Assembly (NCBI GenBank): GCA_963642995.1
Contig: CAVIIZ010000002.1
Span: forward strand, 75,610 to 139,609
Source of the DNA: a bacterium
Lineage (GTDB): Bacteria; Actinomycetota; Coriobacteriia; Coriobacteriales; QAMH01
Reading direction: 5' to 3'
DNA length: 64,000 nt
Position numbers and translations under genes: made by a program. Position 1 is the first letter of the stretch; each line of letters begins with the position of its first letter. Under the pieces are notes generated by a model. It saw only the letters and a list, made by a program, of their open reading frames with translations, was not told where the DNA came from and ran no database searches. This document shows, in pieces, positions 11,150 through 58,476 of this stretch.

Positions 11150-11938
11150 TCAGCCTTTTTCCGCGGCGCTTTGCGTGCTGTCTTGTTTGGCGAGCGCCGC
11201 GTCGGCCTTGTCCTTGTCGCGCGTCCAGCGGGCGTACAGCGTCATGTCGTGGTCTACCTCGAGGGGGAAGGTGATCTGCGTCTGGTAGGTCGTGTCCGTG
11301 TACCATCCGGCGAAATAGCGCCCCGAAATGGTAGGCTCGCGCGGCGCCATGATGAGCGTGCCCGTCTTCACCTCCTGGGACTCGACCAGCGAACCGCCGT
11401 TCGTCTCGTAGGAAACCGTGTAGCGCACGTTCGATTCCGCGACGAGACGCGAGTTCTGCACCCAGACATAGCCTACCCCCGCAAGCGCGGCCAGCAAGAC
11501 GAGCACGACGAGCCCGACGAGCACTTTGCTGCCCGTGCGCATCCCTGTGCGCGCCTCGACGGGCGCGGGCTCGGCGTATGCGGGCTGCGGGGCGTCCATG
11601 TAGGGGAGGGGCTCGAAGGGTTGCCGTTCTTGCGCGCAAAAGGCGGCGTCTGCGGAGAAGGCGGGCAAGTCGGCCGGCGCGAAGGGGTCGTCCACATCAT
11701 CCGGGGCGTCTGCCTCGTCCACGTCATCTGCAACGTCTGCCGCGTCCAATGTGGGGATGAGATCCGCGCGCAGTCTCGCTGCAGCTCGCGTTTCTGCGAT
11801 GCCCGCAGCGGCCGCGTCGCCGGCGCCCGTCTCGTCGAAACGGGCGCCCGCGCCCGCGCAGTCCTCGGCCGGCTCGCCGCACACGGGGCATCCCAAAGCG
11901 CCCGGCGCGAGCGCGGCTCCGCAGCGTCTGCAGTTCAT
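11150..11938 (-). CDS. Zinc-ribbon / single-TM protein with an extracellular Listeria-Bacteroides (Flg_new-type) repeat
   Basis: MNCRRCGAAL...CPVCG zinc ribbon, acidic low-complexity linker, TM VLVGLVVLVLLAALAGVGYVWV. C-terminal YTVSYETNGG...FAGWYTD...TLYARW repeat. RBS AGGCGAGG follows the aconitase stop. Confidence 0.75.
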   Translation of the reverse strand: MNCRRCGAALAPGALGCPVCGEPAEDCAGAGARFDETGAGDAAAAGIAETRAAARLRADLIPTLDAADVADDVDEADAPDDVDDPFAPADLPAFSADAAFCAQERQPFEPLPYMDAPQPAYAEPAPVEARTGMRTGSKVLVGLVVLVLLAALAGVGYVWVQNSRLVAESNVRYTVSYETNGGSLVESQEVKTGTLIMAPREPTISGRYFAGWYTDTTYQTQITFPLEVDHDMTLYARWTRDKDKADAALAKQDSTQSAAEKG

Positions 11939-11951
11939 CGGCACCTCGCCT

Positions 11952-14264
11952 TCAGCGCTGTTTCGCGCGGTTGTAGTTGATCAGGCAGCCCGCCATGACG
12001 ATTTTTCGCTCCTCGGCAGTCATGGGCGCGATGGAAAGGCCGATGCGCACGGGCGCGGCGGATGCATCGCCGCCTCTCACGACCCATGCCTCGATGCTTT
12101 CCAGCGCGTCCGTGTCGAGCGCCTTGCGAATCCCGGGCACGAAGACCCAGTCGCCCACTTCGAGCAGCGCCAGGTCGCCTGCGTAGTGCAGGGGCAGCAT
12201 GCCCCAGTTCATGCAGTTCGAGCGGTAGCGCTTCGTCGCGTATTCGGAGACTATGTTGGCAAGTCCTCCCAGCACGCGCTGGCAGCTGGCCGCCTGCTCG
12301 CGTGCCGAGCCGTCGCCCGGGCGCCTGGCGTAGATGGTGCTGCCCACCTCGACCTCGCCGGCCTCCACGCCCGCATAGCCCTCGACGCCGCGCACCGCGC
12401 GCAGCACCTCGTCCAGCTCCACGGGCAGCTGGCCGGCCTGCCGCGCCTGCTCCAGCTCCCGCACTTCCTTTGCCCGTGCGACGTATCCCGGGTCGCGGCG
12501 CGAGAGGGTGAACTCGGCGAGCCCCAGCGGGTTGGAGCGATAGCTCGACGTCTCGCCGGAGGGAATCAGCTCGTCGGTGGTGGTCACCTCGTCTTCGATC
12601 TTCGAGCACAGCTTCAGCAGCACATGCTCGCCCAGCGGCTCCTGCTTCGGCCAGTCCTTGATGTTGGGCCCGTAGCGCAGCTCGTGGGAAGGGCGCGCGT
12701 CCCCGAAGCCGCGGTAGACGCGTGCGCGGTAGGAGCTGTCGTCGAAGGTGTAGTCGTCGGGCAGGCCCTCGAAGGCGCCCTCGAGCTCGGCGGCGCTCGT
12801 CAGCTTGCCGCCTGCCGCCGCCGTGGCCGCGATCGAGCGCGCGTCCATGAGCGCGACGGCCGCCATCTGCCCGTCTCCCGGTTTCGAGCCCTCGCGGTTG
12901 GGGAAGTTGCGCGTGGCGTGCCGCACGGACAAGGCGTTGTTGGCCGGGGTGTCGCCCGCGCCGAAGCAAGGCCCGCAAAACGCCGTGCGCACGATGGCGC
13001 CCGCGTCCATGAGGTCGGCCAGGCACCCCCGGCGGTCCAGTTCGGTGAAGACCGGCTGGCTGGCGGGGTAGACCGACAGGTAGAACTCGCCGGCGCCGCA
13101 GCTTTCGCCCTTCAGGGCGCTCGCGGCGGCGATGATGTTTGACCAGGTGCCGCCCGCGCAACCCGCGATCACGCCCTGCTGCACCTGCAGGCGCCCGTCG
13201 TCTCCCACCTTGTCGCGCAAGGTGAAGGCGGCGCGGCCTTCTGCCACCTCGGCGGCGCGCCTTTCTGTTTCATGCAAGATATCGTCGAGGTTTTCATAGA
13301 GCTCGTCGATCTCGTAGGCGTTGGAGGGGTGGAAGGGCATGGCGACCATGGGCTTCACCGTCGAGAGGTCCACCTCGACGCAGCCGTCGTAATAGGCCAG
13401 GGGAGCCGGGTCGAGCTGCTCGAACTCCTCGCCGCGCCCGTGCGTCTCCAGCCAAGACCTGGTCTGCCCGTCGGTGCGCCACACCGACGACAGGCAGGTC
13501 GTCTCCGTGGTCATCACGTCGATGCCGTTGCGGTAGTCGCACGAAAGCGCGCCCACGCCCGGCCCCACGAACTCCATGACCTTGTTCTTCACGTAGCCGC
13601 ACCCGTAGACCGCCCTGATGATGGAAAGCGCCACGTCCATAGGGCCTACCCAGGGCTTGGGCGCCCCCTTCAGGTAGACGGCCACGACCTCGGGGCTTTC
13701 CACGTCCCAGGTGTCGCCCAGCAGCTGCTTGTCCAGCTCGCCGCCGCCCTCGCCCACGGCCATGGCGCCCAGCGCGCCGTAGCGGGTGTGGCTGTCCGAT
13801 CCCAAGATCATCTTGCCCGGCGCGGCGAACTTTTCGCGCATGAACTGGTGTATGACGGCGATGTGGGGCGGGACGTAGATGCCGCCGTACTTCACCGCGG
13901 CCGAAAGCCCGAAGAGATGGTCGTCGTCGTTGATGGTGCCGCCCACCGCGCACAGCGAGTTGTGGCAGCAGGTGAGCACGTAGGGCAGGGGGAAGCGCTC
14001 CATGCCGGAGGCCCGCGCCGTCTGGATGATGCCCACGTAGGTGATGTCGTGGCTGGCCATCGCGTCGAATTTCACGCGCACGATGCCGTCCGAGCCGTCG
14101 CCTGCGTCATGGGCGGCCAGTGTCCGGTGCGCGATCGTGCCCGTCCGCGCCCGCTTCTCGTCTGCCTCGCCGCCGGCAAGCGCCTGTACGCGGGCGCTGT
14201 CCGCCGCCTCGACAAGCTCTGTGCCCCCCACCAGGTAGACGCCTGCGTCGTGCAATGTGACCAT
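11952..14264 (-). CDS. Aconitate hydratase (approx. 770-aa aconitase-family enzyme with swivel domain)
   Basis: ATG 14264 with RBS GAGAGGAA. The track ORF extends spuriously to 14594. Aconitase motifs GSDSHT, CGPCFG and TRNFPNREG. Confidence 0.9.
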
Positions 14265-35905: not shown

Positions 35906-35982
<77 letters not shown>

Positions 35983-45383: not shown

Positions 45384-45399
45384 GCTCCTCTTGCCGTCT

Positions 45400-45570: not shown

Positions 45571-45678
45571 TAGTCTTGCGCCAAATCCGCAGCATGCGCA
45601 TATCGCGGTTTTCACCTTCGTCTCGGCAGGCGGACGTGGATGCGCCGCGGCGCACGTCGCTCGTGAAAGGAGTTTGGT

Positions 45679-48036
45679 GTGGAGAGCCTTGCAACAGCGC
45701 TCGTGGCGTTTCTCGTCTTCTTCCCGATGCTCGTGGCGCTCGTCATGCTGGCGGCCCGCAAAGAGGGCGCGCGCACCGTGCTCGCGGTCGCCGGAGCGGT
45801 TCTCGTGGCCGCGGCCTCCATCCTCGTGGCCGCGCTCTTCGGGCTTTCGGGCAGCATGCAGATGAGCGTGGACGCAACCGCCGCCAAGGCGCTCAACATC
45901 GCGGCCCTGGCAGTCGACGTCGTCTTGGGCCTCTACATCATGGGCAAGGCGGCACGTCATGGACGCGCCCTGGTCTTCGTCTTGGCCCTGGCGCAGACGG
46001 CGCTCGTGGTGTGGTTCGAGCTGTGCGTCGCCGAGAGCGTCTCGGTCTCGCACGCGCTCTACATCGACGGCCTGTCCGTGATCATGGCGCTCATCATCGG
46101 CATCGTGGGCAGCGGCATCGCGGTCTACGCCCTCGGCTACATGCGCGACCACCACGACGGGCGCCACCCCGGCGTGGCCGACCGCCGCCCCGTTTTCTTC
46201 GCGGTCGTCTTCGCCTTTCTCGGCGCGATGTTTGCCATCGTCTTCTCCAACAACCTCGCCTGGATGTTTTGCGCCTGGGAGATCACCACGGTGTGCTCGT
46301 TTGCGCTCATCGGCTACGACAAGACGAAGACGGCCACCGACAACGCGTTTCGCCAGATCCTCCTCAACATGGTGGGCGGCCTGGCGTTTGCCGTCGCCTT
46401 GGTGTGGATCGCCGAGGTCTACGACGTGCTCGAGCTCGACCAGTTCATCGCCCAGTCCGCCCAGGCGCTTGCTTCGGGCTCGGGCAACGAGCCCATCGCC
46501 TACATGCCCGTGCTGCTCCTCTCGCTTGCGGCTTTCACCAAAGCGGCGCAGTTCCCCTTCCACAGCTGGCTGCTCGGCGCGATGGTGGCGCCCACGCCCA
46601 CCTCTGCGCTGCTGCATTCCTCCACGATGGTGAAGGCGGGCGTCTTCCTGCTGGTGAAGCTCGCGCCGTGTCTGGGCGCGAACATCCCCGGCTACCTGGT
46701 CATGACCGTCGGCATCGCCACCTTCCTCTTCGCCGCGCTGGCCGCCGTCAGCCAGTCCAACGCCAAGCGCGTGCTGGCCTACTCCACCATCTCCAACCTG
46801 GGGCTGATCGTCGCGTGCGCGGGCGTGGGCACGGACGGCGCGGTGTGGGCGGCCATCTTCCTCATCATCTTCCACGCCGTCGCGAAGTCCCTGCTCTTCT
46901 TGGCCGTGGGCACCGCCGAGCACAGGATCGGCAGCCGCGACATCGAGGACATGGACCTGCTTTTCGAGCGCATGCCGCGCCTGGCGCGCCTGATGTCGAT
47001 CGGCATCATGGGCATGTTCATCGCGCCTTTCGGCATGCTGGTGTCGAAATGGGCGGCCCTGCAATCGTTTGCCGAGGCCTCCAACATCGTCTTGCTGCTG
47101 GTGCTGGCCTTCGGCTCGGCAGCCACCTTCATGTTCTGGGCGAAGTGGCTGGGCAAGCTCTTGGCCGTCTCGACGGGCGAGGCGCGCGACCTCGAGAAAG
47201 GGGTGCATTCGAGCGAATGGGCCTCGCTTGCCCTCATGTGCGTGCTCACCGTCGGATGCTGCATCGCGTTTCCGCTCATCTCGCAGGTCGTCGTCGTGCC
47301 CTATCTGGAGGGGGTCTTCACCGAGGTGGGCCGCGACATCTCCGCAGGCGACCTGTGGATAATGTCGATCATCGCGCTCGTGGTCGCGGTGGTCTTTCTC
47401 GGCGCCTCGTTTTCCACGAAGAAAAAGCAGGTGCCGGTCTATATGGCGGGCGCGGCCTGCGAAGACGAGCCCCGCAGCTTCCACGGCTCTTTCGGCGCGC
47501 CTGTCGCCTCCGCGCAGCGCAACTGGTACATGCGCGACCTCTTCGACGAGAAGAAGACCGCGCTCGCGGGCAGCATCGTCGCCCTCGTCCTCATGGTGGG
47601 CGCCTTCGGCTTCGTCGGCCAGGCCACGCTCGAGTCCAAGGAGAGCATCGAGGAATATGCCGTAGAACATGCCGTCTACGTGGGCAGCGAGTGGGAGGAA
47701 GCCGGCATCAGCTTCACCACCTTCGACAGCTACTACCAGCAATACATCCCCAGCTACGAGCAGTACAAAAGCGAGTACGCGGCCATGGGCATCGCAGACG
47801 CCGGGACCTTCATGGATTTCGTCTACGAGCAGCTCTCGCAATCGTATTCGTCGTCTAGCTCCTCGTCGTCCGGATCCGATGCATCCGGATCCTCAGACTC
47901 TTCTGCCGCCTCCGACACATCCGGCTCTTCCGACTCGTCTGCCTCGGCGGATTCGTCGGGCTCGTCGTCGGCGCAGCAAGGCTCCGCGTCGGGCAATGCC
48001 GCCGATGGTTCCGCGAACGCGAAAGGAGGCGAGTAG
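45679..48036 (+). CDS. echA: Ech-type [NiFe]-hydrogenase membrane subunit (NuoL/antiporter-like) with a C-terminal extension
   Basis: GTG 45679 with RBS GAAAGGAG. Multi-TM proton-conducting transporter motifs (KAAQFPFHSWL, STISNLG). The last ~140 aa are non-membrane and end in a Ser/Asp/Gly-rich tail. Confidence 0.88.
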   Translation: MESLATALVAFLVFFPMLVALVMLAARKEGARTVLAVAGAVLVAAASILVAALFGLSGSMQMSVDATAAKALNIAALAVDVVLGLYIMGKAARHGRALVFVLALAQTALVVWFELCVAESVSVSHALYIDGLSVIMALIIGIVGSGIAVYALGYMRDHHDGRHPGVADRRPVFFAVVFAFLGAMFAIVFSNNLAWMFCAWEITTVCSFALIGYDKTKTATDNAFRQILLNMVGGLAFAVALVWIAEVYDVLELDQFIAQSAQALASGSGNEPIAYMPVLLLSLAAFTKAAQFPFHSWLLGAMVAPTPTSALLHSSTMVKAGVFLLVKLAPCLGANIPGYLVMTVGIATFLFAALAAVSQSNAKRVLAYSTISNLGLIVACAGVGTDGAVWAAIFLIIFHAVAKSLLFLAVGTAEHRIGSRDIEDMDLLFERMPRLARLMSIGIMGMFIAPFGMLVSKWAALQSFAEASNIVLLLVLAFGSAATFMFWAKWLGKLLAVSTGEARDLEKGVHSSEWASLALMCVLTVGCCIAFPLISQVVVVPYLEGVFTEVGRDISAGDLWIMSIIALVVAVVFLGASFSTKKKQVPVYMAGAACEDEPRSFHGSFGAPVASAQRNWYMRDLFDEKKTALAGSIVALVLMVGAFGFVGQATLESKESIEEYAVEHAVYVGSEWEEAGISFTTFDSYYQQYIPSYEQYKSEYAAMGIADAGTFMDFVYEQLSQSYSSSSSSSSGSDASGSSDSSAASDTSGSSDSSASADSSGSSSAQQGSASGNAADGSANAKGGE

Positions 48037-48039
48037 CCC

Positions 48040-48939
48040 ATGCAGATCAGCATCATCGGGATGAACGTGTCGGTGCTCTCGTTTGTCGGGATGGCCGCCT
48101 TCCTCTTGCTCGCGGGCGTGCTGGGCTGCCTGCTGGCCGGCCTCGACCGCAAGTTCAGCGCGCGTATGCAAGGACGCGTGGGGCCCAAGGTCTTGCAGCC
48201 CCTGTGGGACGTGCGCAAGCTGCGGGGCAAGGAAGACGCCACGGTCAACGGCGCGCAAGACCTCTACGTGCGCCTCTACTTCCTCTTCGTCCTGCTCGCG
48301 GGCATGGCCTTTTTCGCCGGCGCCAATTTCCTCGTGTGCGTCTTCATCCTCACGCTGGCCGAGCTCTTCTTGATCGTCGCGGCCTACGCGTCGCGCTCGC
48401 CGTATGCCGAGATAGGCGCCGAGCGCGAGACGGTGCAGGTGATGGCCTACGAGCCCATGGTCTTGCTCGTGGCCGTCGGCATCTACATGGCCTGCGGCTC
48501 GTTTCGCGTGCAAGACGCCGTCGCGGCCGACCTGCCGCTCGTGGCCTACCTGCCGTTTCTGTTCATCGGCTTTCTCTATGTGCTCACGATCAAGCTGCGC
48601 AAGTCGCCCTTCGACATATCCATGGCCGAGCACGCGCACCAAGAGATCGTGCGCGGGCTTTCCACGGAGTTCTCCGGCAAGACGCTTGCGCTCGTGGAGA
48701 TCGCGCACTGGTACGAGACGGTGCTCTTCCTCGGGTGGACGGCCATGTTCGTCATCTGGCAGGGCAGCCCCGTCTCCATCGCCGTCGCCGTGGCGGTGGC
48801 GCTGGTCGTGTGGCTGTTCGAGATATGGGTCGACAACAGCTTCGCCCGCGTGAAGTGGCAGAGCATGCTCAAGACGGCGTGGTGGGCCGCCCTGGCCGCC
48901 GGCGCCGTGAACATCGTCTATCTCATGGTCTTTTTCTAA
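48040..48939 (+). CDS. echB: Ech hydrogenase membrane subunit (NuoH/HycD-like)
   Basis: LDRKFSARMQGRVGP motif typical of the NuoH/HycD/EchB family, 8 TM segments. RBS GGAGG, 3-nt gap after echA. Confidence 0.9.
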   Translation: MQISIIGMNVSVLSFVGMAAFLLLAGVLGCLLAGLDRKFSARMQGRVGPKVLQPLWDVRKLRGKEDATVNGAQDLYVRLYFLFVLLAGMAFFAGANFLVCVFILTLAELFLIVAAYASRSPYAEIGAERETVQVMAYEPMVLLVAVGIYMACGSFRVQDAVAADLPLVAYLPFLFIGFLYVLTIKLRKSPFDISMAEHAHQEIVRGLSTEFSGKTLALVEIAHWYETVLFLGWTAMFVIWQGSPVSIAVAVAVALVVWLFEIWVDNSFARVKWQSMLKTAWWAALAAGAVNIVYLMVFF

Positions 48940-48952
48940 AGGAGGCGCATCT

Positions 48953-49504
48953 GTGGGCACGAAATCGTATGCGGGCAAATCGCCTTGGGTCATCCACTAC
49001 GACGGGTCGAGCTGCAACGGCTGCGACATCGAGGTGCTGGCCGCGCTCACGCCGCTCTACGACGCAGAGCGCTTCGGCGTGGTGAACACGGGCAATCCCA
49101 AACACGCCGACATCCTCGTGGTCACGGGCGGCGTCAACGAGCAGAACGCGCCTGTCGTGCGCCAGATCTACGAGCAGATGCTCGAGCCGAAGGTGGTCGT
49201 GGCCTGCGGGGCATGCGCCTGCGGCGGCGGCGTCTACGTCGAGTGCTACAACGTGCGCGGCGGCACGGCCACGGCGGGCATACCCGTGGACGCCTACGTG
49301 CCGGGATGCGCCGTGCGGCCGGAGTCGGTGCTCGACGCGGTGCTCGCCGGGGTGAAGCTGCTCGACGAGAAGGCCGCGAAGATGGGCCGCGAGGCAGGCG
49401 AGAAACGCCGCGACATGCCGGCGAAGCCCGATGAGGACGCGCGGGCAGACGAGGGCGCGGACACGGCGGATGCGGACATGGAGGAAAAGGAGGCGGGGGC
49501 ATGA
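48953..49504 (+). CDS. echC: Ech hydrogenase small subunit (NuoB-like, [4Fe-4S])
   Basis: GTG with RBS AAGGAGG. Cys ligands in SCNGCD, ACGACACGGG and PGCAVRP. Acidic C-terminal tail. Confidence 0.9.
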   Translation: MGTKSYAGKSPWVIHYDGSSCNGCDIEVLAALTPLYDAERFGVVNTGNPKHADILVVTGGVNEQNAPVVRQIYEQMLEPKVVVACGACACGGGVYVECYNVRGGTATAGIPVDAYVPGCAVRPESVLDAVLAGVKLLDEKAAKMGREAGEKRRDMPAKPDEDARADEGADTADADMEEKEAGA

Positions 49505-50121
49505 CGGCAGGCGAGGAGCAGGTGAAGGACACGACGGCAAGCGCGCGGGACGCGGCGGATGCGACGGGCGCGGCGGACGCGCAGAAGGCAGGCGCCGTGC
49601 GCACGCTGGAGAGCACCACCCCCAACAGCTACGAGGAACTGGCCGCAGACGAGCTGGCGGCGCGTGTGGCCGCATGCAAGGAACAGGGCTTTCGCTTCAT
49701 CCAGATGTGCGCGACCACCGCAGACGACGGTGTGGAGCTGCTCTACTCGTTTTCCGACCCCGACCCGCATGTGCGCGACATCGTCTCGTTCATCTTGCGC
49801 GTTGAAGACGGCGCCTGCGTGCCGTCCATCTCCGGAGACTACCCCGAGGCCTTCGTCAACGAAAACGAGGCGCACGACCTGTTCGGCGTCCGCTTCGAGG
49901 GACTTTCCTTGGACTACGAGGGCAAGTTCTACACGCTGCCCGTCTCCTACCCGATGAACCCGCGGGCGGCGCAGGCGCAAGCATCTGCCGAGGCCTGCGT
50001 CAAGCCGGGCGCGGACACGGGTTGCGGTGAAGGCGCATCCGCGGGCGCCGGCGGCGAAGAGACGGGCAAAGGCGAGGCCGCAGGCGCAGACGCAGGGCGA
50101 GAGGAGGGCGGCAATGAGTAA
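49501..50121 (+). CDS. echD: Ech hydrogenase subunit (NuoC/30-kDa-like)
   Basis: ATGA overlap with echC. Core FRFIQMCATTADDGVELLYSF...EAHDLFGVRFEG, flanked by low-complexity N- and C-terminal extensions. Confidence 0.85.
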   Translation: MTAGEEQVKDTTASARDAADATGAADAQKAGAVRTLESTTPNSYEELAADELAARVAACKEQGFRFIQMCATTADDGVELLYSFSDPDPHVRDIVSFILRVEDGACVPSISGDYPEAFVNENEAHDLFGVRFEGLSLDYEGKFYTLPVSYPMNPRAAQAQASAEACVKPGADTGCGEGASAGAGGEETGKGEAAGADAGREEGGNE

Positions 50122-51202
50122 ACGCACCGTCATCCCCTTCGGCCCGCAGCATCCCGTCTTGCCCGAGCCGTTGCACTTGGACCTCGTGCTCGACGACGAG
50201 AAGGTCGTCGAGGCGCTGCCACGCATCGGCTACGTGCACCGCGGGTTGGAAAAACTCGTGGAAAAGCGCGACTACAAGATGTTCGTCTACGTCGTCGAGC
50301 GCATATGCGGCATATGCTCCTACGGCCACTCGCTGGGATACGCGCAATGCGTCGAGCAGCTTCTGGACGTGCGGGTGCCGCCGCGCGCCGAGTACCTGCG
50401 CGTCATCTTCCACGAGCTCTCGCGCGTGCACAACCACCTGCTGTGGCTGGGTCTTCTGGCCGATGCCTTCGGCTTCGAGTCGCTGTTCATGCACTCGTGG
50501 CGCCTGCGCGAGCGCGTCCTCGACATATTCGAGGAATGCACGGGCGGCCGCGTCATCTTCTCGGCAAACGACGTGGGCGGTTTTCGCCAAGACGTCGACG
50601 ACGCCACCCTGAAGGGGATGGTCGTCGTGCTGCGCCGCCTTGAAGAGGACTACCGCGCCCTCTACAAGACCTTCCTCATGGACACGAGCGTGAGAAGCCG
50701 CCTCGACGGCGTCGCGCCCATCTCCGAAGAGCAAGCCGCCGAGTACTCGATGGTGGGTCCTTTCGCCCGCGCCTCCGGGCTGCTCGTAGACGAGCGCCTG
50801 CACGGCGTCGGCGCCTACGGGGCGCTTGCGGCCTTCGAGCCGGTGCTCTCGGTCGTGGGCGATTGCTACGCCCGCTGCGTCGTGCGCGCAAAAGAGCTGT
50901 TCCAGTCCATCGACATCATCGCCGAACTGGTGGACAAGGTGCCGGGTGGCGAGGTGGCGGTGAAGGTGAAGGGCAATCCGGAGGCCGGCGCGCGCTCGAT
51001 GGTCACCATCGAGCAGCCACGCGGCCAGGCCTTCTACTACGCGGCGGGCAACGGCACGAAGTTTCTGGAACGCATGCGCGTGCGCACGCCGACGGCGCAG
51101 AACATGCAAGGCCTCGTCGCCTCGCTTGCGGGCTGCGACCTGGCCGACGTGCCCATGATCATATTGACCATCGACCCGTGCATCAGCTGCACGGAGCGCT
51201 AG
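50114..51202 (+). CDS. echE: Ech [NiFe]-hydrogenase large (catalytic) subunit (NuoD-like)
   Basis: ATG 50114, overlapping echD by 8 nt. N-terminal Ni-Fe ligand motif RICGICSYGHS. C-terminal motif DPCISCTER, which is also the end of the protein. Confidence 0.93.
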   Translation: MSKRTVIPFGPQHPVLPEPLHLDLVLDDEKVVEALPRIGYVHRGLEKLVEKRDYKMFVYVVERICGICSYGHSLGYAQCVEQLLDVRVPPRAEYLRVIFHELSRVHNHLLWLGLLADAFGFESLFMHSWRLRERVLDIFEECTGGRVIFSANDVGGFRQDVDDATLKGMVVVLRRLEEDYRALYKTFLMDTSVRSRLDGVAPISEEQAAEYSMVGPFARASGLLVDERLHGVGAYGALAAFEPVLSVVGDCYARCVVRAKELFQSIDIIAELVDKVPGGEVAVKVKGNPEAGARSMVTIEQPRGQAFYYAAGNGTKFLERMRVRTPTAQNMQGLVASLAGCDLADVPMIILTIDPCISCTER

Positions 51203-51218
51203 GAAAGGGACGGCGAGC

Positions 51219-51704
51219 ATGGGATTGTTCAAGTTCGGGGCCACGACGCTGGGCAGCTTGTTCTCGAAGCCCGCCACGCGCAAGTACCCCTACGAGAGGC
51301 GCGGGCCGTATGCGCGCACGCGCGGGCGCATCGAGATGGAGGACATGAAGGCCTGCATCCTGTGCGGCCTGTGCTCCACGCGCTGCCCGGCGTTGTGCAT
51401 AGAGGTGGACAAGCAGGCCGAGACCTGGACATATTGGCCTTACAAGTGCATCGCCTGCGATTCGTGCGTGCGCGCCTGCCCCAAGGGCGTGCTGTCCATG
51501 CGCCCCGAGCATGCGCCCGCCACGACGGACATGGAGTCCGTGGTGTGCGAGAAACCGCCGCTTTCGCCTGAAGAGCAAGCCGAGAAAGAGCGCAAGGAAG
51601 CCGAGCGCGCGGCAAAGGTCGCCGCCGCCAAGGCGAAGAAGGCCGCCGCTTCCGCCGGAAAGCCCGGCGGCGCGCAGGCCTGCGGCGACGGCGACGCGGA
51701 GTAG
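51219..51704 (+). CDS. echF: Ech hydrogenase 2x[4Fe-4S] ferredoxin-like subunit (NuoI/HycF-like)
   Basis: CILCGLCSTRCP and CIACDSCVRACP clusters. Lys/Ala/Glu-rich C-terminal tail. Confidence 0.9.
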   Translation: MGLFKFGATTLGSLFSKPATRKYPYERRGPYARTRGRIEMEDMKACILCGLCSTRCPALCIEVDKQAETWTYWPYKCIACDSCVRACPKGVLSMRPEHAPATTDMESVVCEKPPLSPEEQAEKERKEAERAAKVAAAKAKKAAASAGKPGGAQACGDGDAE

Positions 51705-51707
51705 CCC

Positions 51708-52352
51708 ATGGCGGGAATGCTCGACGCTCAAAACTACCCGGACGAGCTGGTCAGCGACAAGGTCCTGACAGGGCCCAACGTCGTCACCTTCGTCCGGCTG
51801 CTCCTCATACCGTTGTTCTTGTGGCTTTTGTTCGGGGCGCGCCAGGAGTTCGCGGCTCTCGTCGTGTTCGCCATCGCGTCGTGCACGGACTGGGTGGACG
51901 GCCAGCTCGCGCGCCGCACAGGCCAGGTCTCGAAGCTGGGCAAGCTCTTGGACCCGCTCGTGGACCGTTTCCTGCTCGCGGCAGGCGTCATCGCCATCGT
52001 GGTGCTGGGCCGCCTGCCCGTGTGGGTGCTCGTCTACATCGTCGCCCGCGACTTGCTCCTGCTCGCCGAGGGGCGCTTCATGCTCGCGCGGGTGGGCGAG
52101 GTGCCCCCCGTGGTCTACCTGGGCAAGTTCGCGACCGCGTTTCTCATGTGCGGCTTCTGCCTGCTGTTGCTCGGGCTTCCGCAGGTTCCGGGACTGGGGC
52201 TTGCCGGCGCGCCTTCATGGCTGCCGGGTTTCGGGACGCAGCCCGCCTTGCTCGGCATATGGTTCGTCTACGCGGGACTGGTCTGCTCTGTTTCCGTGTT
52301 CTTCGTCTACCAGGTGAACGGCTGGCGCCTGTTGAAGAAGAAGGGGACTTGA
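51708..52352 (+). CDS. CDP-alcohol phosphatidyltransferase (PgsA-like)
   Basis: Complete signature D-x2-DG-x2-AR-x8-G-x3-D-x3-D in TDWVDGQLARRTGQVSKLGKLLDPLVD. Six TM segments. Starts 3 nt after the echF stop. Confidence 0.88.
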   Translation: MAGMLDAQNYPDELVSDKVLTGPNVVTFVRLLLIPLFLWLLFGARQEFAALVVFAIASCTDWVDGQLARRTGQVSKLGKLLDPLVDRFLLAAGVIAIVVLGRLPVWVLVYIVARDLLLLAEGRFMLARVGEVPPVVYLGKFATAFLMCGFCLLLLGLPQVPGLGLAGAPSWLPGFGTQPALLGIWFVYAGLVCSVSVFFVYQVNGWRLLKKKGT

Positions 52353-52393
52353 AAGGCGAGGAGCCTTGCCGTCGAGGAGGGGGAGGAAGATCC

Positions 52394-54043
52394 ATGTCTG
52401 CGAGTTTGCGTGAAGTCCTCGAAAGCGGCGAATTCGTCGTCACCTGCGAGTGCATCCCGGGACGAGGCGCATTCGAGGAGGCGGTAGAGCTCTCTTTGGA
52501 CAACGCGCGCGCCATCTGGGCGGGCGGGCGCGTGCATGCCATCAGCCTATGCGACAACCCCGGCGGCAACCCGGCGCTTTCAGCCGACGCGGCCGCCGTC
52601 GAGCTTGCCCGCGACGGGGTGGAGTGCCTCGTCCACTTCTCCGCCAAAGACCGCAGCCGCGACCAGGCGCTCGCCCAGCTCTACGCCTTGGAGCGCGCGG
52701 GGCTGCACAACGTCTTGTGCATGACGGGGGACTATCCGCAAAGCGGCTGGCAGGGTCTCTCGCGCCCGGTCTTCGACTTGGACAGCGTGCAGCTCGTGGC
52801 GCTGGCGCATGCGATGAACGAGGGGCTGGAAGTGCCCGCGCATGGCCGGGCATCGCACGAGAGGCCCTGCTCGTTTCTCGTCGGCGCGGTGGCAAACCCC
52901 TTCAAATACCGTGCCGGCGAACTCCACCCCCAATACCTGAAGCTGGAAAAGAAGATCTGCGCCGGCGCCGAGTTTGTGGTCAGCCAGCTGGGATACGACG
53001 CGCGCAAGATGGAAGAGCTCGTGCGCTACGTGCGCGGGCACGGATACGACACGCCGCTTCTCGCCAACGTCTTCGTGGCCAGCCGTTTTGTCGCAGGCCT
53101 CATGCGCGCCGGCACGATTGCGGGAGCGCATGCAAGCGACGCTTTCCTCGCGGCCCTAGACGCCGAGTCGGCGCTGCCCGACAAGGGCGCGGCGGCGCGT
53201 GTCGAGCGGGCGGCGGCGCAGGTGGCCCTCGCCCGAGAGCTGGGCTATGCCGGCGTGCACCTGGGGGGCTTCGGCGTGGACGCGCCCGGCGTGGCGGCCA
53301 TACTCGAGCGCGCCGCAGAGCTTGCAGGAGACGTGCGCCCGCTGGCCGCCCGCCTCGATTTCGGAGAGGAAGGCGGCTGCTATCTGTATCCGCGCGCAGA
53401 AGGCGCCGCCGCGCCCGGCGCGCGTGGCGAGGAGGGAAAGCCCGTTGCAGCAAGAGAGAAAGCGCCCGCCGGCGCGCCGGCGCGGGATGCGGCGCCGCTT
53501 GCCGACGAGGTGCCCGGACGCGCCCTCTTCAAACGCTGGCGCATCTCGCGTTTCTTCCATGCCCTCATGCTCACGAAGGACAAAGGGCTCTATGGCCTCC
53601 TCGCCAAGCGAATGGACAAGAAGGAGAGAAAGCACGGGCGCGCTTTCGCTCACGGCGTCGAGCACGGGGTGAAGGCGGCGCTCTACGGTTGCAAGGACTG
53701 CGGCGACTGCGGGCTGGAAACCTGCCTGTTCTCCTGCCCCATGGCCGCGTGTCCAAAAAACCAGCGCAACGGGCCGTGCGGTGGCAGCGACGACGGGTTT
53801 TGCGAGGTGGGGGGGCGCGAAGAGGGGCGCTATTGCATCTGGTACCTCGCCTGGCACAGGGCGCGCGCGGCGGGCGGGGAGAAACTGCTCTCCTCGTTCA
53901 TCACCCCGCCAAACGATTGGGCCTTGCGCAACACGAGCGCCTGGAGCAACTACACGCACGCCCGCGACGCCAACGCGCATCGCCTGCCCGTCTCGATAGG
54001 CGATGCGCGCCTCGCCTCTGACGGGCGCTGTGTAAAATCCTGA
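52394..54043 (+). CDS. metF: Methylenetetrahydrofolate reductase fused to a Cys-rich MetV-like (MTHFR C-terminal) domain
   Basis: ATG 52394 with RBS GGGAGGAAGA, inside ORF 51821..54043. MetF barrel ([28 protein letters not shown]), an Ala/Pro/Gly linker, then [40 protein letters not shown]. Confidence 0.88.
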
Positions 54044-54087
54044 GGCGCCATGTTTTCGCGAGACGCGCGACGAGAGGGGAGAGCACG

Positions 54088-55752
54088 GTGAAAAGCGACA
54101 TCGAGATAGCGCAGGAGGCGACCCTGCAGCCCATCGAGCAGGTGGCGGCCGCCTGCGGCATCGCGGAAAAAGACCTCACCTGCTACGGGCGCCACAAGGC
54201 AAAAGTCGCGCTGTCGGCCCTTCGCGAGATGCCGGCGCCCGGCAAGCTCGTGCTCGTCACGGCCATCAACCCCACGCCCGCAGGCGAGGGCAAGACCACC
54301 ACCACGGTAGGGCTCGCAGACGGCCTGCGCCGCATAGGCAAAAACGCCGTCATCGCCTTGCGCGAGCCGTCGCTAGGGCCGGTGTTCGGGGTGAAGGGCG
54401 GCGCCGCCGGCGGCGGGTACGCGCAGGTCGTGCCCATGGAAGACATCAACTTGCACTTCACCGGCGATTTCCACGCCATAGGCGCGGCGGCAAACCTCCT
54501 GGCCGCCATGCTCGACAACCACATCCAGCAGGGAAACGAGCTTTCCATCGACCCCAAGCAGATAGTCTGGAAGCGCGCGGTGGACATGAACGACCGCCAG
54601 CTGCGCCACATCGTGGACGGCCTGGGCGGCGCCAAGCAGGGCGTGCCGCGCGAAGACGCCTTCCAGATCACGGTCGCCTCCGAGGTCATGGCCATCTTCT
54701 GCCTGGCCACCTCCATCGCCGACCTCAAAGAGCGCCTCTCGCGCATCGTCGTGGCCTACACCTACGACGGCGCACCCGTGACGGCGCGCGACCTGAAGGC
54801 GCACGGCGCCATGTGCGCGCTGCTCAAAGACGCCCTTTCGCCCAATCTCGTGCAGACGCTCGAGGGCACGCCCGCATTCGTGCACGGAGGGCCGTTTGCC
54901 AACATCGCGCACGGCTGCAACTCCGTCATGGCCACGCGCGCCGCGATGAAGTTCGGCGACTACGCCATCACCGAGGCGGGCTTCGGCGCGGACCTGGGCG
55001 CGGAGAAGTTTTTCGACATCAAGTGCCGACTTGCCGGCCTCGTGCCCGATGCCGTGGTCGTCGTGGCCACGGTGCGCGCGCTCAAGCACCACGGGGGCGC
55101 CGCGCTTTCCGCGCTCGCCGACGAGGACCTGGACGCGTTGCAGGCGGGCCTGCCGAACCTCTTGCAACACGTGCAAAACATACGCGAGGTCTACGGGCTG
55201 CCCTGCGTCGTCGCCGTGAACGCCTTTCCCACCGACACGGACGGAGAGCTTGCCCTGGTCGAGGGGAAATGCCGCGAGCTGGGGGTCGAGGCGGTCCGCT
55301 CCACCGTGTGGGCAGACGGCGGCGCCGGCGGGCGAGAGCTGGCGCAACGCGTGGTCGATCTGTGCGAGGCCGACAAGCGCTTCACGTTCTCCCACGAGCT
55401 GGACGGCTCCATCGAGGAGAAGGTGGGGGCAATCGCCGAGCGCGTCTACCATGCCGACGGCGCCGTCTTCACGCCGGCGGCGAAAGCGCAGGCCGCACGT
55501 CTCGAGGAGCTGGGGTTTGCCGGCCTTCCCGTGTGCATCGCCAAGACCCAGTACTCGTTTTCCGACGACGCGTCGCTGCTGGGCGCGCCGCGCGGGTTTT
55601 CCATCACGGTGCGCGAGCTGGCCGTCTCGGCCGGCGCCGGCTTCATCGTGGCCTTGACCGGCGACATCTTGACCATGCCGGGCCTGCCCGAGCACCCGAG
55701 CGCCGAAAAGATCGACGTGGACGCCTCGGGGCGCATCACGGGGCTTTTCTAG
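54088..55752 (+). CDS. fhs: Formate--tetrahydrofolate ligase
   Basis: GTG start with [24 protein letters not shown]..., P-loop [16 protein letters not shown]-terminal ...[13 protein letters not shown]. Confidence 0.95.
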
Positions 55753-55771
55753 ACGGGCGGAGGCGACGGCC

Positions 55772-56416
55772 ATGGCTGAGGACACGCGCGTGTTCAAAGA
55801 CTGCAGCTGCCACGAGTTCGTGGAGGCCCTGGGCAGCGCTTCGCCCGTCCCCTCGGGCGGCGGGGCGGCGGCGCTTGTCGGCGGCATCGCGGCGGCGCTG
55901 GCCTCGATGGCGGCCTCGCTTGCGGAGAAGCGCCACGGGGGGGCGCAGGGAAAAGAGCTCGCCTCGGCCTGCGCGCGCCTGAGGCGGCTGCAAGAGCGCC
56001 TCTTGCGGTGCATAGACGACGACGCGCGGGCTTTCCTGCCGCTGTCGGCCGCCTACAAGATGCCGAAGGACACCCCGGAACGCCGAGCTGCGCGCGCCGA
56101 GGCGATGGAGAGCCGCCTGCGTGCCTGCGCCGAGGTCCCGCTTTCCATGATGCGCGCCTGCGCCGAGGTTCTGGAAATGCTTCCCGGCCTTTTGGAGCCC
56201 GCCGGCCCGCTGCTTGCAAGCGATGTGGGATCTGCGGCGGTCCTGTGCCGCGCAGCCGCGCAATCGGCGGCGCTGTCGTTGCGCGCGAACACGTCGATGA
56301 TGGCCGGCCGCGACGTCGCCCGCGCGCTCGAGGACGAGGCAGACGCGCTGCTCGAAGCATGTGGAAACACGGCGCATGCGGTTTACCTGGACGCGGAGGG
56401 GAGGCTGCGCACATGA
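55772..56416 (+). CDS. fchA: Methenyl-THF cyclohydrolase / cyclodeaminase-domain protein (FchA-like)
   Basis: FVEALGSASPVPSGGGAAALVGGIAAALASM, typical of the FTCD_C/FchA family. Confidence 0.85.
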   Translation: MAEDTRVFKDCSCHEFVEALGSASPVPSGGGAAALVGGIAAALASMAASLAEKRHGGAQGKELASACARLRRLQERLLRCIDDDARAFLPLSAAYKMPKDTPERRAARAEAMESRLRACAEVPLSMMRACAEVLEMLPGLLEPAGPLLASDVGSAAVLCRAAAQSAALSLRANTSMMAGRDVARALEDEADALLEACGNTAHAVYLDAEGRLRT

Positions 56417-57273
56417 ATGAGGAGACGCTTTCGGGAAAGCCGGTCGCCGAAAAGCTCGACGCCGCCACGCGCGAGGCCTCCGATGCGCTCGGGGCACGCG
56501 GCGTTTTCCCGACCCTCGCCGTCGTGCGCGTGGGCGAGGACGGGGCCGCCGTCTCCTACGAGCGCTCGATCGTCAAGCGCGGGAAGGCCTGCGGCGTCGA
56601 CGTGAGAAGCGTCGCGCTTGCCGCCGACGCGGGCATGCCCGAGTTGCTCGCGCGCATAGAAGAGCTTTCCGCCGACCCCTGCGTGCACGGCGTCATGCTC
56701 TTTCGCCCCCTGCCGCCCGCGCTCGACGAGCAGGCCGCTTGCGAGGCCATCGCGCCCGCCAAAGACGTGGACGGCTGCACGCGCGCGTCCCTTGCAGGCG
56801 TTTTCGCCGGATCCGCCGAAGGCTTTGCCCCGGCCACGGCTGCCGCCTGCATCGCCGTTGCCGACCATTACGGCGTCGACCTGGCGGGAAAGCGCATCCT
56901 CGTCGTCGGCCGCAGCCTCGTGGTGGGCCGCCCCCTCGCCATGCTCTTGCTCGCCCGCGACGCCACCGTCACGCTCGCGCACTCGAAGTCCGTCGACGCC
57001 GCGGCGCTTTCCCGCGGATCCGACGTCGTCGTGGCCGCCGCAGGCCATGCCGGCCTCGTGGACGCGGACTGGCTGCGGCCCGGCCAGACGGTCCTCGACG
57101 TCGGGGTGAACGTGGGCGCGGACGGAAAGCTGTGCGGGGACGTGGACGCGGACGCCGCGCGGGCGGCAGGCGTCGCCTTCACCCCGGTCCCGGGCGGCGT
57201 CGGAGCCGTCACCACGAGCGTGCTGCTCTCGCATGTGGCAGATGCCGCCGGGCGCCTCTCGCGGGCGGGCTGA
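56413..57273 (+). CDS. folD: Bifunctional methylene-THF dehydrogenase / methenyl-THF cyclohydrolase
   Basis: ATG 56413 (ATGA overlap with fchA) inside ORF 56008..57273. LAVVRVGEDGAAVSYERS, VVGRSLVVGRPLAMLL, PVPGGVGAVT. Confidence 0.92.
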   Translation: MNEETLSGKPVAEKLDAATREASDALGARGVFPTLAVVRVGEDGAAVSYERSIVKRGKACGVDVRSVALAADAGMPELLARIEELSADPCVHGVMLFRPLPPALDEQAACEAIAPAKDVDGCTRASLAGVFAGSAEGFAPATAAACIAVADHYGVDLAGKRILVVGRSLVVGRPLAMLLLARDATVTLAHSKSVDAAALSRGSDVVVAAAGHAGLVDADWLRPGQTVLDVGVNVGADGKLCGDVDADAARAAGVAFTPVPGGVGAVTTSVLLSHVADAAGRLSRAG

Positions 57274-57470
57274 AGCCTCTTTCGGCACGCGCCCCATGGC
57301 GCATGTGCCCTTTGAAAGGAATTCCGGAAGGGCGCGATGCGTCCGCCGCGCGTGCGCTACCATCTCTTGCCGCGAGGCGCCCGCCTCCTCGCGCCCGCGG
57401 CTCGCAACGCCTCGGGCGCGCTGCGTGCCGCGCGCCGCATGTCGCGTGCTTTTTCGTTAGGAGCATTTTC

Positions 57471-58190
57471 ATGGAAACGACCATATTGCTCGCGCTGCAG
57501 TCCATGCGCGTGGACGGCCTCACGCAGCTTCTCGCGCTCGTGTCCGCGCTGGGAAACCAGGCCTTCGTGTGGCTTCTCATAGGGTTCGTGTGCCTGTTCA
57601 TCTCGGAAAAACGCGAGGAGGGCATCTGCATCTTCCTCGCCGTCGCCGTCGTCTTCGTCGTGAGCGAGGTCGGGATAGAGCACCTTGTCGCCCGCGTGCG
57701 CCCTTGCGACGCCGGCATAGGCGTGAGCGCGGTGGTGGGCGTGAGCCACAACGGCTACTCCTTTCCCAGCGGGCACGCGGCCAGCTCCTTTGCCTGCGCG
57801 ATCGTCATCGCGATGATGTCGCACTCGCGCCGAGGCGGGGTGTGCGCGGTGCTGTTCGCGCTGCTGGTCGCGTTCTCGCGCCTGTATCTGGGCGTCCACT
57901 ATCCCACCGATGTGGCAGGCGGCGCCATCATCGGCGCCGCCTGCGGCCTGGCCGTCGTGGGGATATGGCGCCTCTTCTTGGGATCTGCGCTCATGGGGCT
58001 TTTCGCGAAGCTGGAAAGGGCGGGCGGCAGTGCGCGCGCCGGCCATGCGGGCAAGGGCACCCCCACGGCGCGCCACCTCGAAGGAAAGCCGCCGCGTCCG
58101 GGCGACGCGCGCGCCTCCAGGGAAACGGCGCATGCGAGGACACGGCAAAAGGGCGCGCACACCCGCACCACCCCGAGACGACGCGATTAG
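57471..58190 (+). CDS. PAP2-family phosphatase (undecaprenyl-diphosphatase-like) with a basic C-terminal tail
   Basis: ATG 57471 with RBS AGGAG. PAP2 motifs RVRP, PSGHA and SRLYLGVHYPTDV. Confidence 0.85.
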   Translation: METTILLALQSMRVDGLTQLLALVSALGNQAFVWLLIGFVCLFISEKREEGICIFLAVAVVFVVSEVGIEHLVARVRPCDAGIGVSAVVGVSHNGYSFPSGHAASSFACAIVIAMMSHSRRGGVCAVLFALLVAFSRLYLGVHYPTDVAGGAIIGAACGLAVVGIWRLFLGSALMGLFAKLERAGGSARAGHAGKGTPTARHLEGKPPRPGDARASRETAHARTRQKGAHTRTTPRRRD

Positions 58191-58200: not shown

Positions 58201-58476
58201 ATGGAAAAACAGGAAGCACAAGCGCAGATAGAGCGGCACCGCGCCCGCATCGACGAGTTGGACGCGCAGCTGCTCGCGTTGATGAACGAGCGCTCGGAGG
58301 AGTCGCTTGCCATACGCGCCCTGAAGCCGGCGGCCGGCGCGCGGCTTTTCGACGCGGCGCGCGAGGAGCGCATCCTCGCCCGCCTCGACGAGCTGAACGA
58401 AGGGCCCATGGCAAACGCCGACGTGCGCAAGATCTACGCCACCTTGCTCGAGGTGATGAAAGAGGTGAAGGCGTGA
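58201..58476 (+). CDS. Chorismate mutase (AroQ class, 91 aa)
   Basis: ATG 58201 with RBS AGGAG. RIDELDAQLLALMNERSEESLAIRALK...REERILARL pattern. Confidence 0.85.
   Translation: MEKQEAQAQIERHRARIDELDAQLLALMNERSEESLAIRALKPAAGARLFDAAREERILARLDELNEGPMANADVRKIYATLLEVMKEVKA

Follow-up and report, generated by a model that had tools for sequence, protein, structure and literature searches.

An apparent operon fusion of an Ech-type hydrogenase with a metF::metV-fhs-fchA-folD unit in one clade of gut Coriobacteriia

The physiological electron donor of the MetVF-type methylene-tetrahydrofolate (methylene-THF) reductases has been debated for decades, and the current hypothesis is that these enzymes are wired to the hydrogenase Ech or to Rnf (PMC8760232). 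The purified MetFV of Thermoanaerobacter kivui reduced methylene-THF only with reduced ferredoxin or viologen and did not use NAD(P)H, while with methyl-THF it did not reduce ferredoxin (PMC8578170). Reduced ferredoxin and viologens are likewise the only donors accepted by purified MetFV/MetVF enzymes. Here we analyzed a 64-kb stretch of DNA from a bacterium of the Coriobacteriia (contig CAVIIZ010000002.1; hereafter, the window), in which a cluster on the + strand (45679-57273) encodes an Ech-type [NiFe]-hydrogenase (EchA-F), a CDP-alcohol phosphatidyltransferase, a reductase in which MetF and MetV are fused (MetF::MetV, here also MetFV), and the C1 enzymes Fhs, FchA and FolD. The first-pass annotation had proposed that these genes could form a single H2/ferredoxin-coupled C1 module. 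Comparison with related genomes suggests instead that, in the ancestor of one genus of gut Coriobacteriia, two conserved operons were set head to tail (i.e., an operon fusion). The first unit would comprise a six-subunit, ferredoxin-linked and ion-translocating Ech-type hydrogenase together with a phospholipid synthase, and the second, metF::metV-fhs-fchA-folD, would interconvert formate and methyl-THF.

The evidence for two units comes mainly from synteny. An alignment of MetFV was scanned over one genome per GTDB species, yielding 80 loci, each with flanks of up to 10 kb, and synteny was scored by tblastn with the window proteins. Only three of these loci had ech and/or the phosphatidyltransferase gene upstream of metFV: L001, L002 and L003, with MetFV identities to the window of 85, 82 and 78%, respectively. 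All three were deposited under unrelated Firmicutes names, evidently because the bins are mislabelled. In L001 (CAVECB01), the arrangement recurs in full between ribD and pcrA. Among the loci with at least 7 kb of upstream DNA, ech was found in 1 of 42 (L001); among those with at least 700 nt, the phosphatidyltransferase was found in 3 of 70, all of the window's clade, and the junction was missing from the other 67. Three further metagenome or metagenome-assembled genome (MAG) contigs of the clade (L086-L088; L087 from GCA_963629675.1) carried the same 11 genes, and this EchE was found on 16 contigs. The junction is present in at least four species and several metagenome contigs, all belonging to one genus-level clade. 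The question raised by the first-pass annotation, whether the adjacency is peculiar to one strain or shared by relatives, is answered in part each way: this clade has kept it, and no other members of the class show it. Upstream of metFV, L004 (60% MetFV identity) had 307 nt of AT-rich non-coding DNA, L089 (57%) a 2-hydroxyacid dehydrogenase gene and L090 (55%) a divergent gene; the junction was found in none of these. The linkage did not recur across lineages either, with no independent case in the loci of Dehalococcoidia, Peptococcaceae and Deltaproteobacteria. It should be noted that the non-coding DNA of L004 (1-307) contains repeated ACACGGGTGTTCG(C/T)CATAA(A/T)AA motifs, which may be an operator array.

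The two units were found separately in other Coriobacteriia. No metFV gene was found near ech in five other ech lineages (L083, L084, L085, L091 and L093). In four of the five (L083, L084 of Xiamenia, L085 and L093; Table 1), the phosphatidyltransferase gene directly followed echF and was itself followed by VanW/G5, peptidase S11, GCV_T and FHA genes. It did not follow echF in the termite-gut locus L091, where transaldolase and rho genes were found. On the other side of the junction, fhs followed metFV in 41 of the 60 loci with enough downstream DNA. Because each is conserved alone in relatives, echABCDEF plus the phosphatidyltransferase gene and metFV-fhs-fchA-folD are regarded as the ancestral units, which the window's clade appears to have joined head to tail. 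What survives of the single-module reading is the terminator-free, operon-like spacing of the genes; what does not is its unity, as there are two separately conserved units, 3 of the 80 MetFV loci are joined, and the phosphatidyltransferase gene between echF and metFV, which had been counted within one 11-gene module, goes with ech in the relatives. The link between ech and the phosphatidyltransferase may reflect a lipid requirement of the hydrogenase complex. In L093, a PAP2-family gene whose product is 42% identical to that of the window lies ~7 kb downstream of the phosphatidyltransferase gene. Because this gene lies beyond the VanW...FHA block, the arrangement suggests, with low confidence, that the C1 cassette replaced this block and sits where L093 has it.

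At the junction itself, the phosphatidyltransferase gene and metFV are separated by a 41-nt spacer (52353-52393; 41-47 nt in L001-L003 and L086-L088), whose ribosome-binding site, GAGGAGGGGGAGGAAG, is conserved in the same relatives. The spacer also contains a 5-bp hairpin (AAGGC-GAGGA-GCCTT, 52353-52367) that appears as AAGAC-GAAGG-GTCTT in L001, with one compensatory pair, and no T-run (U-tract) follows it. A terminator scan returned 14 terminator-like sites in 14 kb, which is unremarkable against 9.0 +/- 3.3 in shuffled sequences, and none of them fell in any intergenic gap of the cluster, including the ech/metFV junction. This agrees with the earlier observation that no terminator precedes the end of folD, and the weak hairpin reported then at 57284-57313 was also seen. 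The first convincing terminator-like hairpin on the + strand lies at 57429-57448 and is followed by CTTTTTCGTT. The 197-nt gap after folD (57274-57470) is strongly structured (-105 kcal/mol for 57255-57470) and is likely the end of the transcription unit. Together, the 41-nt junction, its ribosome-binding site and the lack of a terminator point to co-transcription from the ech promoter; read-through would be the simplest expectation, and the 11 genes would be transcribed mainly from a promoter upstream of echA, with a further promoter conceivable inside the 3' end of the phosphatidyltransferase gene.

That promoter and the 5' leader of ech are probably located in the divergent ribD-echA intergenic region (45327-45678; the ribD start at about 45326 was taken from the 371-aa L086 orthologue). 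Long blocks of this region are 100% conserved in the window, L001, L086 and L087, and could be an operator or leader for either operon. The only TATAGT on the + strand of the 64 kb is found here, at 45569-45574, 110 nt upstream of echA, and L083 and L085 have GTATAGT-like elements about as far upstream of their echA genes. When an upstream motif common to the Coriobacteriia ech operons was sought, only the TATAGT-like -10 element and the ribosome-binding site recurred. Within 300 nt upstream of the other ten genes of the cluster, there are only two -10-like hexamers, TATGGT at 52258 (metFV) and TAAAAT at 54033 (fhs). A flavin mononucleotide riboswitch on the minus strand of the ribD-echA region was considered and rejected, as no Rfam match was obtained at the gathering score or at E<=1. 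A sigma-70 promoter scan found one site, inside echF, against 0.9 expected, and is uninformative for a high-GC actinobacterium.

As for function, we regard as evenly balanced the proposal that a ferredoxin:H2 module is co-expressed with a ferredoxin-consuming C1 reduction, in which Ech supplies reduced ferredoxin from H2 and ion-motive force and formate is the C1 source. Reduced ferredoxin, not a dedicated complex, would be the functional link: Ech would equilibrate H2 with ferredoxin at the cost or gain of ion-motive force, and MetFV would accept electrons at the level of ferredoxin. In this scheme, H2 and ion-motive force would give reduced ferredoxin through Ech; formate and ATP would be converted to formyl-THF by Fhs; FchA and FolD would, with NAD(P)H, carry this to methylene-THF; and MetFV would produce methyl-THF for methionine and for corrinoid methyl transfer. 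The direction, which is the least secure step, is most likely reductive and largely anabolic, because ferredoxin-dependent reduction of methylene-THF is the sole MetFV reaction demonstrated with a natural carrier in vitro, and because relatives link the unit to folE, to B12-sensing LysR regulators and to parts of a methyl-THF:corrinoid methyltransferase system. Several observations weigh against this proposal. The phosphatidyltransferase gene stands between echF and metFV, so the adjacency is not subunit-to-subunit, and the hexamers at 52258 and 54033 are candidate internal -10 elements. The separate FchA and the RACo-type activators of the relatives, both more typical of high-flux or catabolic C1 systems, are left unaccounted for by an anabolic role. 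In addition, free ferredoxin makes, in the view of Öppinger et al. (PMC8760232), an energetically unfavorable physiological donor.

A tighter coupling is conceivable, in which MetFV docks on the peripheral arm of Ech and receives electrons directly through the [NiFe]/iron-sulfur chain. In the forward direction, such a dedicated respiratory module would reduce methylene-THF with H2 and pump ions; in reverse, ion influx would drive methyl-THF oxidation to H2, so that methyl groups from corrinoid demethylases would end as formate and ATP via FolD, FchA and Fhs. The same complex has been postulated for T. kivui and other MetVF-type acetogens, and the postulate also covers methyl oxidation by reverse electron transport (PMC8760232, PMC8578170); moreover, the ech1 cluster of T. 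kivui encodes MetV-like iron-sulfur proteins (PMC4320612). The locus offers some support for this idea, given that both gene sets lie in one terminator-free block that is stable in at least four species, that relatives join metFV to a corrinoid protein, a methyl-THF:corrinoid methyltransferase and a RACo activator, and that a formate transporter gene lies near the L005 cluster. However, the linkage is limited to one clade and missing from 67 of 70 other-species loci, a lipid-synthesis gene intervenes between echF and metFV, the ech set of the window lacks any additional or MetV-like subunit, a docking domain specific to the clade was not noticed, and the 64-kb window contains no methyltransferase genes. 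Likewise, purified Ech2 of T. kivui contained no MetFV and thus formed no supercomplex with it (PMC10986591). An ancient module dedicated to H2 and C1 conversion is disfavored by the comparative evidence, and direct docking appears to us quite improbable.

The juxtaposition might, at the other extreme, be neutral: a rearrangement would have placed a housekeeping C1-folate operon behind a housekeeping ech operon, each keeping its own promoter and physiology, with Ech handling the ferredoxin of 2-oxoacid oxidoreductases and the C1 genes serving purine, thymidylate and methionine synthesis. Such a history would accord with the conservation of both units, unlinked, in the rest of the class, with the different surroundings of both units in different lineages, with the backbone of L093 (ech, phosphatidyltransferase, VanW...FHA, PAP2), in which the C1 cassette of the window takes the place of VanW...FHA, and with the possible internal -10 element at 52258. 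It accords less well with a terminator-free junction of 41-47 nt whose strong ribosome-binding site is kept down to 78% protein identity, as same-strand gaps of less than 50 nt are strong predictors of co-transcription, and with the ferredoxin dependence of both enzyme systems, for which co-expression would plausibly be useful. We consider a purely neutral arrangement unlikely, though not negligibly so, and continue with co-expression linked through ferredoxin as the preferred reading.

The description of the hydrogenase as Ech-type in the first-pass annotation was borne out by its six subunits (A-F), its separate NuoC-like and NuoD-like subunits, the motifs of EchE and the lack of an adjacent formate dehydrogenase or carbon monoxide dehydrogenase (CODH). 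EchE contains the L1 motif RICGICSYGH at aa 63 and the L2 motif DPCISCTER at aa 354-362, which is its C-terminus; both Ni-Fe ligand pairs are thus present and there is no C-terminal extension. Both motifs align with those of MbhL and HycE, and the best solved relatives of EchE were Pyrococcus MbhL (6cfw, group 4d; 232 bits) and Escherichia coli HycE (7z0s, group 4a; 205 bits), with no 4e (Ech) or 4c (Coo) structure among the solved structures available for this comparison. The NCBIfam scan of EchE returned only NuoD/FpoD-type matches, below their cut-offs. EchD and EchE are separate proteins, unlike the HycE of group 4a, and the set includes one antiporter-like subunit, unlike the Mrp-linked groups 4b and 4d. 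From this gene architecture, we infer that the enzyme probably belongs to subgroup 4e. The cysteines of EchC (21, 24, 85/88/90 and 119) are those expected for the proximal cluster, and EchF has two CxxCxxCxxxC motifs, CILCGLCSTRC at aa 46 and CIACDSCVRAC at aa 77. EchA is 89% identical in L001.

The order echABCDEF is the same in six other Coriobacteriia loci, and no formate dehydrogenase or CODH gene adjoins ech in the window or in those six. EchE homologues at 65-73% identity carry the JGI/IMG name 'ech hydrogenase subunit E'. Because many Coriobacteriia, among them the cultured Xiamenia xianingshaonis, have EchE homologues of exactly 362 aa (65-77% identity), Ech is a common feature of the class rather than a speciality of this locus. 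About 5 kb downstream of ech (16733-19067), the Xiamenia locus L084 encodes an indolepyruvate/2-oxoacid:ferredoxin oxidoreductase along with an AMP-binding ligase and an ACT protein, a hint that the usual task of Ech is to turn over ferredoxin during the fermentation of amino acids. The C-terminal tail of EchA (~47780-48036) consists of ~90 aa rich in Ser, Ala, Gly and Asp. Low-complexity tails are also found at the C-terminus of EchC, the N-terminus of EchD and the C-terminus of EchF, those of EchC and EchF being acidic or Ala-rich, and tail lengths vary among relatives (EchD 132-235 aa, EchF 117-167 aa).

The phosphatidyltransferase has an intact DxxDGxxARx8GxxxDxxxD motif (aa 61-86). Its NCBIfam matches were ClsA at 131.5 bits (cut-off, 240) and pgsA at 99.4 bits (cut-off, 109.1), and it is a putative phosphatidylglycerol-phosphate or cardiolipin synthase. 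The PAP2 family includes phosphatidylglycerol-phosphate phosphatases; the PAP2 gene downstream of folD and this PgsA-like gene could form a phosphatidylglycerol pathway pair.

In the reductase, an N-terminal methylene-THF reductase TIM barrel (PF02219, aa 5-290, 1.8e-15) is connected through a low-complexity linker (~aa 330-385) to a C-terminal Cys-rich domain of MetV type (PF12225, aa 419-509, 3.9e-22). In an alignment of 24 sequences, eight cysteines of the MetV domain are invariant (433, 436, 439, 448, 453, 462, 470 and 481), which would be enough for two [4Fe-4S] clusters. AlphaFold predicted the protein with a pTM of 0.82 and a pLDDT of >90 for the barrel (residues 1-320); the Ala/Pro/Gly/Glu linker was disordered, and the Cys-rich domain was poorly modelled, as expected for a model without the clusters. 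A Foldseek search with the barrel matched Thermus thermophilus MetF (E 1.4e-13; TMt, i.e., target-normalized TM-score, 0.81) and also E. coli MetF (~0.8). No MetV-type protein was found among the solved structures, and no NCBIfam equivalog covers MetF::MetV. The best 120 MetFV homologues were all fused (510-620 aa), and the named ones came from Coriobacteriia, Coriobacteriales or Eggerthellaceae; more distant fused forms were found in MAGs of Dehalococcoidia, Peptococcaceae and Deltaproteobacteria. Type II MetVF enzymes consist of two subunits encoded by metV and then metF. Because the window encodes a single polypeptide, MetF::MetV is a fused variant and not a canonical type II enzyme. No rnfC2 (type III) or hdrABC-mvhD (type IV) partner was found in the window or in the annotated relatives L081, L089 and L090. 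On these grounds, MetF::MetV is predicted to work like a type II MetVF enzyme, i.e., one of iron-sulfur/flavin type with no NAD(P)H module, and no member of this fused form appears to have been characterized. One 876-aa homologue (P0086), from a 6.5-kb contig, combines the reductase, the MetV-C domain and FTCD_C (FchA) in one polypeptide, which is either a further fusion in the same pathway or a gene-calling artefact. The metFV gene of L087, which appeared as two open reading frames (ORFs) and might be taken for a pseudogene, has a run of 103 N in the linker region and no frameshift.

What surrounds metFV in the relatives bears on its role. In 48 of the 80 loci, metFV had one or more of the following nearby: a B12-binding protein, a Pterin_bind methyltransferase (methyl-THF:corrinoid type), RACo and DUF2284. 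In 11 of the 80, GTP cyclohydrolase I (folE) was also present. These neighbors tie the unit to the exchange of methyl groups between methyl-corrinoid and methyl-THF. Upstream of metFV and divergent from it, rumen Eggerthellaceae encode a LysR-type regulator with fused B12-binding_2 and B12-binding domains (L025 6666-8222, minus strand), and minus-strand B12-binding matches like that of L025 were found in L015, L018, L019, L021, L026, L027, L036 and L066. This LysR::B12-binding protein apparently controls transcription of the C1 operon by sensing cobalamin. As a biosynthetic option, methionine synthesis of a split, MetH-like kind that responds to B12 and runs beside folate synthesis would fit; demethylation would fit as a catabolic one, to which the RACo-type activators and the separate FchA point. 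No substrate-specific (MT-I) methyltransferase was found in the few loci of relatives that were annotated. In the Raoultibacter MAG locus L005, a gene for a FocA-type formate/nitrite transporter (2970-3818) lies a few kb upstream of the corrinoid-protein/metFV cluster, in keeping with formate being consumed or produced by the pathway. In L037, from a gut Coriobacteriia MAG, two copies of metFV-fhs-fchA-folD stand head to head as an inverted duplication (1550-11737), either a real palindrome or an assembly artefact.

The gene content of the window was determined from Pfam and NCBIfam scans of its ORFs (Table 1). All 11 co-directional genes of the first-pass annotation were recovered on the + strand with family support for each, its gene identities proved right throughout, and the recomputed gaps (3, 13, -4, -8, 16, 3, 41, 44, 19 and -4 nt) equal those it had listed. 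An ORF in another frame (52450-54021) was rejected as a gene, having no family match; metFV is read in the frame of ORF 51821-54043. Upstream, the cluster is bordered by a divergent riboflavin operon (ribD, ribE, ribBA, ribH and a HAD hydrolase gene); downstream of folD follow co-directional genes for a PAP2-family phosphatase and a chorismate mutase, the latter abutting pcrA. In L086 and L088, an extra 255-aa minus-strand gene, not present in the window, follows folD.

Table 1. Features of the ech-metFV cluster, its downstream neighbors and the phosphatidyltransferase genes that follow echF in other Coriobacteriia.
Feature	Locus	Coordinates	Strand	Product	Family support
echA	window	45679..48036	+	NuoL/Mrp-antiporter-like membrane subunit, 785 aa	PF00361 (Proton_antipo_M) 2.2e-51; PF00662 (Proton_antipo_N)
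echB	window	48040..48939	+	NuoH-like membrane subunit	PF00146 (NADHdh) 1.8e-43
echC	window	48953..49504	+	NuoB-like hydrogenase small subunit, proximal [4Fe-4S]	PF01058 (Oxidored_q6) 1e-27
echD	window	49501..50121	+	NuoC-like subunit	PF00329 (Complex1_30kDa) 3.5e-08, 34.5 bits (cut-off 22.5)
echE	window	50114..51202	+	[NiFe]-hydrogenase large subunit, 362 aa	PF00374 (NiFeSe_Hases); PF00346 (Complex1_49kDa)
echF	window	51219..51704	+	NuoI-like 2x[4Fe-4S] ferredoxin-type subunit	Fer4_7 and related families
phosphatidyltransferase	window	51708..52352	+	CDP-alcohol phosphatidyltransferase (PgsA/ClsA type)	PF01066 (CDP-OH_P_transf) 8.7e-38
metF::metV	window	52394..54043	+	fused methylene-THF reductase, 549 aa	PF02219; PF12225
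fhs	window	54088..55752	+	formate-tetrahydrofolate ligase	PF01268 7.7e-264, 876 bits; NCBIfam PRK13505 896 bits (cut-off 652)
fchA	window	55772..56416	+	methenyl-THF cyclohydrolase	PF04961 (FTCD_C) 5.5e-48; NCBIfam FchA 126 bits (below cut-off 275)
folD	window	56413..57273	+	methylene-THF dehydrogenase/cyclohydrolase	PF02882 1.6e-47; PF00763 9.2e-28
PAP2 gene	window	57471..58160	+	PAP2-family phosphatase	
chorismate mutase gene	window	58201..58473	+	chorismate mutase	
phosphatidyltransferase	L083	11580..12221		phosphatidyltransferase, after echF	
phosphatidyltransferase	L084 (Xiamenia)	11599..12297		phosphatidyltransferase, after echF	
phosphatidyltransferase	L085	11583..12257		phosphatidyltransferase, after echF	
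phosphatidyltransferase	L093	10591..11232		phosphatidyltransferase, after echF	

The methyl branch of the Wood-Ljungdahl pathway (Fhs, FchA, FolD and MetF) is present in full. Genes for CODH/acetyl-CoA synthase (ACS), the corrinoid iron-sulfur protein, AcsE and formate dehydrogenase were found neither in the 64-kb window nor in the 10-kb flanks of the relatives, and Pfam scans of the rest of the window bore out the earlier list of absences (CODH/ACS, formate dehydrogenase, Hdr/Mvh and Rnf). Corrinoid methyltransferase genes (B12-binding, Pterin_bind, RACo and DUF2284) were likewise sought in the 64-kb window and not found, and it contains no hyp maturation genes. On present evidence, the name Wood-Ljungdahl pathway is not warranted for the cluster, and none of the findings demonstrates acetogenesis. 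The host had been proposed to belong to the Coriobacteriia, which is supported by the source names of the homologues. Horizontal transfer of one half of the cluster was considered and rejected, as both halves are nearest to Coriobacteriia and their GC contents (0.65-0.70) differ slightly.

The remaining genes of the window have housekeeping and transport functions. The region at 30000-36700 has a GC content of 0.60-0.62, compared to ~0.67 elsewhere, and contains several ORFs without a family, a Vsr mismatch endonuclease gene (33951-34472) and a gene for a DUF1847 protein (31199-32260). Given also that an ISL3 transposase fragment (36096-36641) adjoins the only tRNA gene of the window (35909-35982, minus strand), this region may be an integrated island. 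A 966-aa protein encoded at 17315-20215, with a papain-like Peptidase_C1 fragment and a lectin-like domain, is probably a secreted or surface protease.

All components of the cluster come from known families; what is new is the operon fusion, the fused MetF::MetV form and the conserved linkage of ech with the phosphatidyltransferase gene. A full-text literature search found no paper describing ech-metFV linkage or a fused MetFV in Coriobacteriia. The fusion bears on the open Ech-MetFV hypothesis for acetogens without demonstrating it, and the lineage-restricted linkage is best regarded as a useful lead rather than a surprise, a hint of a connection between H2/ferredoxin and MetFV. The clade offers a simple test system, in which one terminator-free block encodes both partners and the reductase is a single fused polypeptide. 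If docking proved true, the locus would be the first natural genetic signature of the postulated, never found Ech-MetFV respiratory complex, which would act as an ion-translocating H2:methylene-THF oxidoreductase or, in reverse, as a gradient-driven methyl-THF:H+ oxidoreductase; demethylating gut bacteria could then oxidize methyl groups to formate and H2, with ATP formed at Fhs. If coupling is only via free ferredoxin, the locus still documents Ech as a conserved core component of gut Coriobacteriia, a link between Ech and a phospholipid synthase, and a conserved unit of fused MetFV and Fhs-FchA-FolD tied to B12/corrinoid genes.

Compared to the Ech hydrogenases (group 4e) of Methanosarcina barkeri and Thermoanaerobacter, that of the window has the same six-gene order, echABCDEF, with NuoL/H/B/C/D/I-like subunits, the same large subunit of ~360 aa with both CxxC motifs and no C-terminal extension, the same single antiporter-like subunit and, as in those systems, no adjacent formate dehydrogenase or CODH partner. 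It differs in being actinobacterial, in the low-complexity tails of EchA, EchC, EchD and EchF, and in a conserved seventh gene, that of the CDP-alcohol phosphatidyltransferase. The hypothetical Ech-MetFV complex of T. kivui (Öppinger et al. 2021; Katsyv et al. 2021) involves the same two enzyme systems, which are contiguous in the window. For T. kivui, the proposal is founded on energetics and the MetV-like iron-sulfur proteins of ech1, and metFV lies in the Wood-Ljungdahl pathway cluster, near ech2 but not adjoining it; in the window, by contrast, ech includes no MetV-like protein, CODH/ACS is not known to occur, and a single clade has the linkage.

The type II MetVF enzymes of Clostridium ljungdahlii, T. 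kivui, E. callanderi and C. formicoaceticum have the same MetF barrel and the same MetV iron-sulfur domain (PF12225) as MetF::MetV, and they likewise have no adjacent rnfC2 or hdrABC-mvhD and no NAD(P)H-binding module. In contrast to the two genes of these acetogens, metV then metF, the window encodes one polypeptide with MetF N-terminal and MetV C-terminal, separated by a linker of ~55 aa, and its sequence has diverged strongly from canonical MetF (E about 1e-7 against MetF in the PDB). The acetogen methyl-branch cluster fhs-fchA-folD-metV-metF (T. kivui, A. woodii and C. ljungdahlii) provides the same four activities, including an FchA beside FolD. Unlike that cluster, the C1 unit of the window starts with metFV and is not followed by acs/cooS, cooC, acsE or gcvH/lpdA, and in relatives it is accompanied instead by a corrinoid protein, a Pterin_bind methyltransferase, RACo, folE or B12-sensing regulators. 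Lastly, the anabolic hydrogenases of methanogens (Eha/Ehb and Ech) produce reduced ferredoxin from H2 for biosynthesis. Eha and Ehb have far more subunits, and the analogy with the proposed role of the window's Ech is one of function only, in which H2 and ion-motive force would provide reduced ferredoxin for a ferredoxin-dependent biosynthetic reduction.

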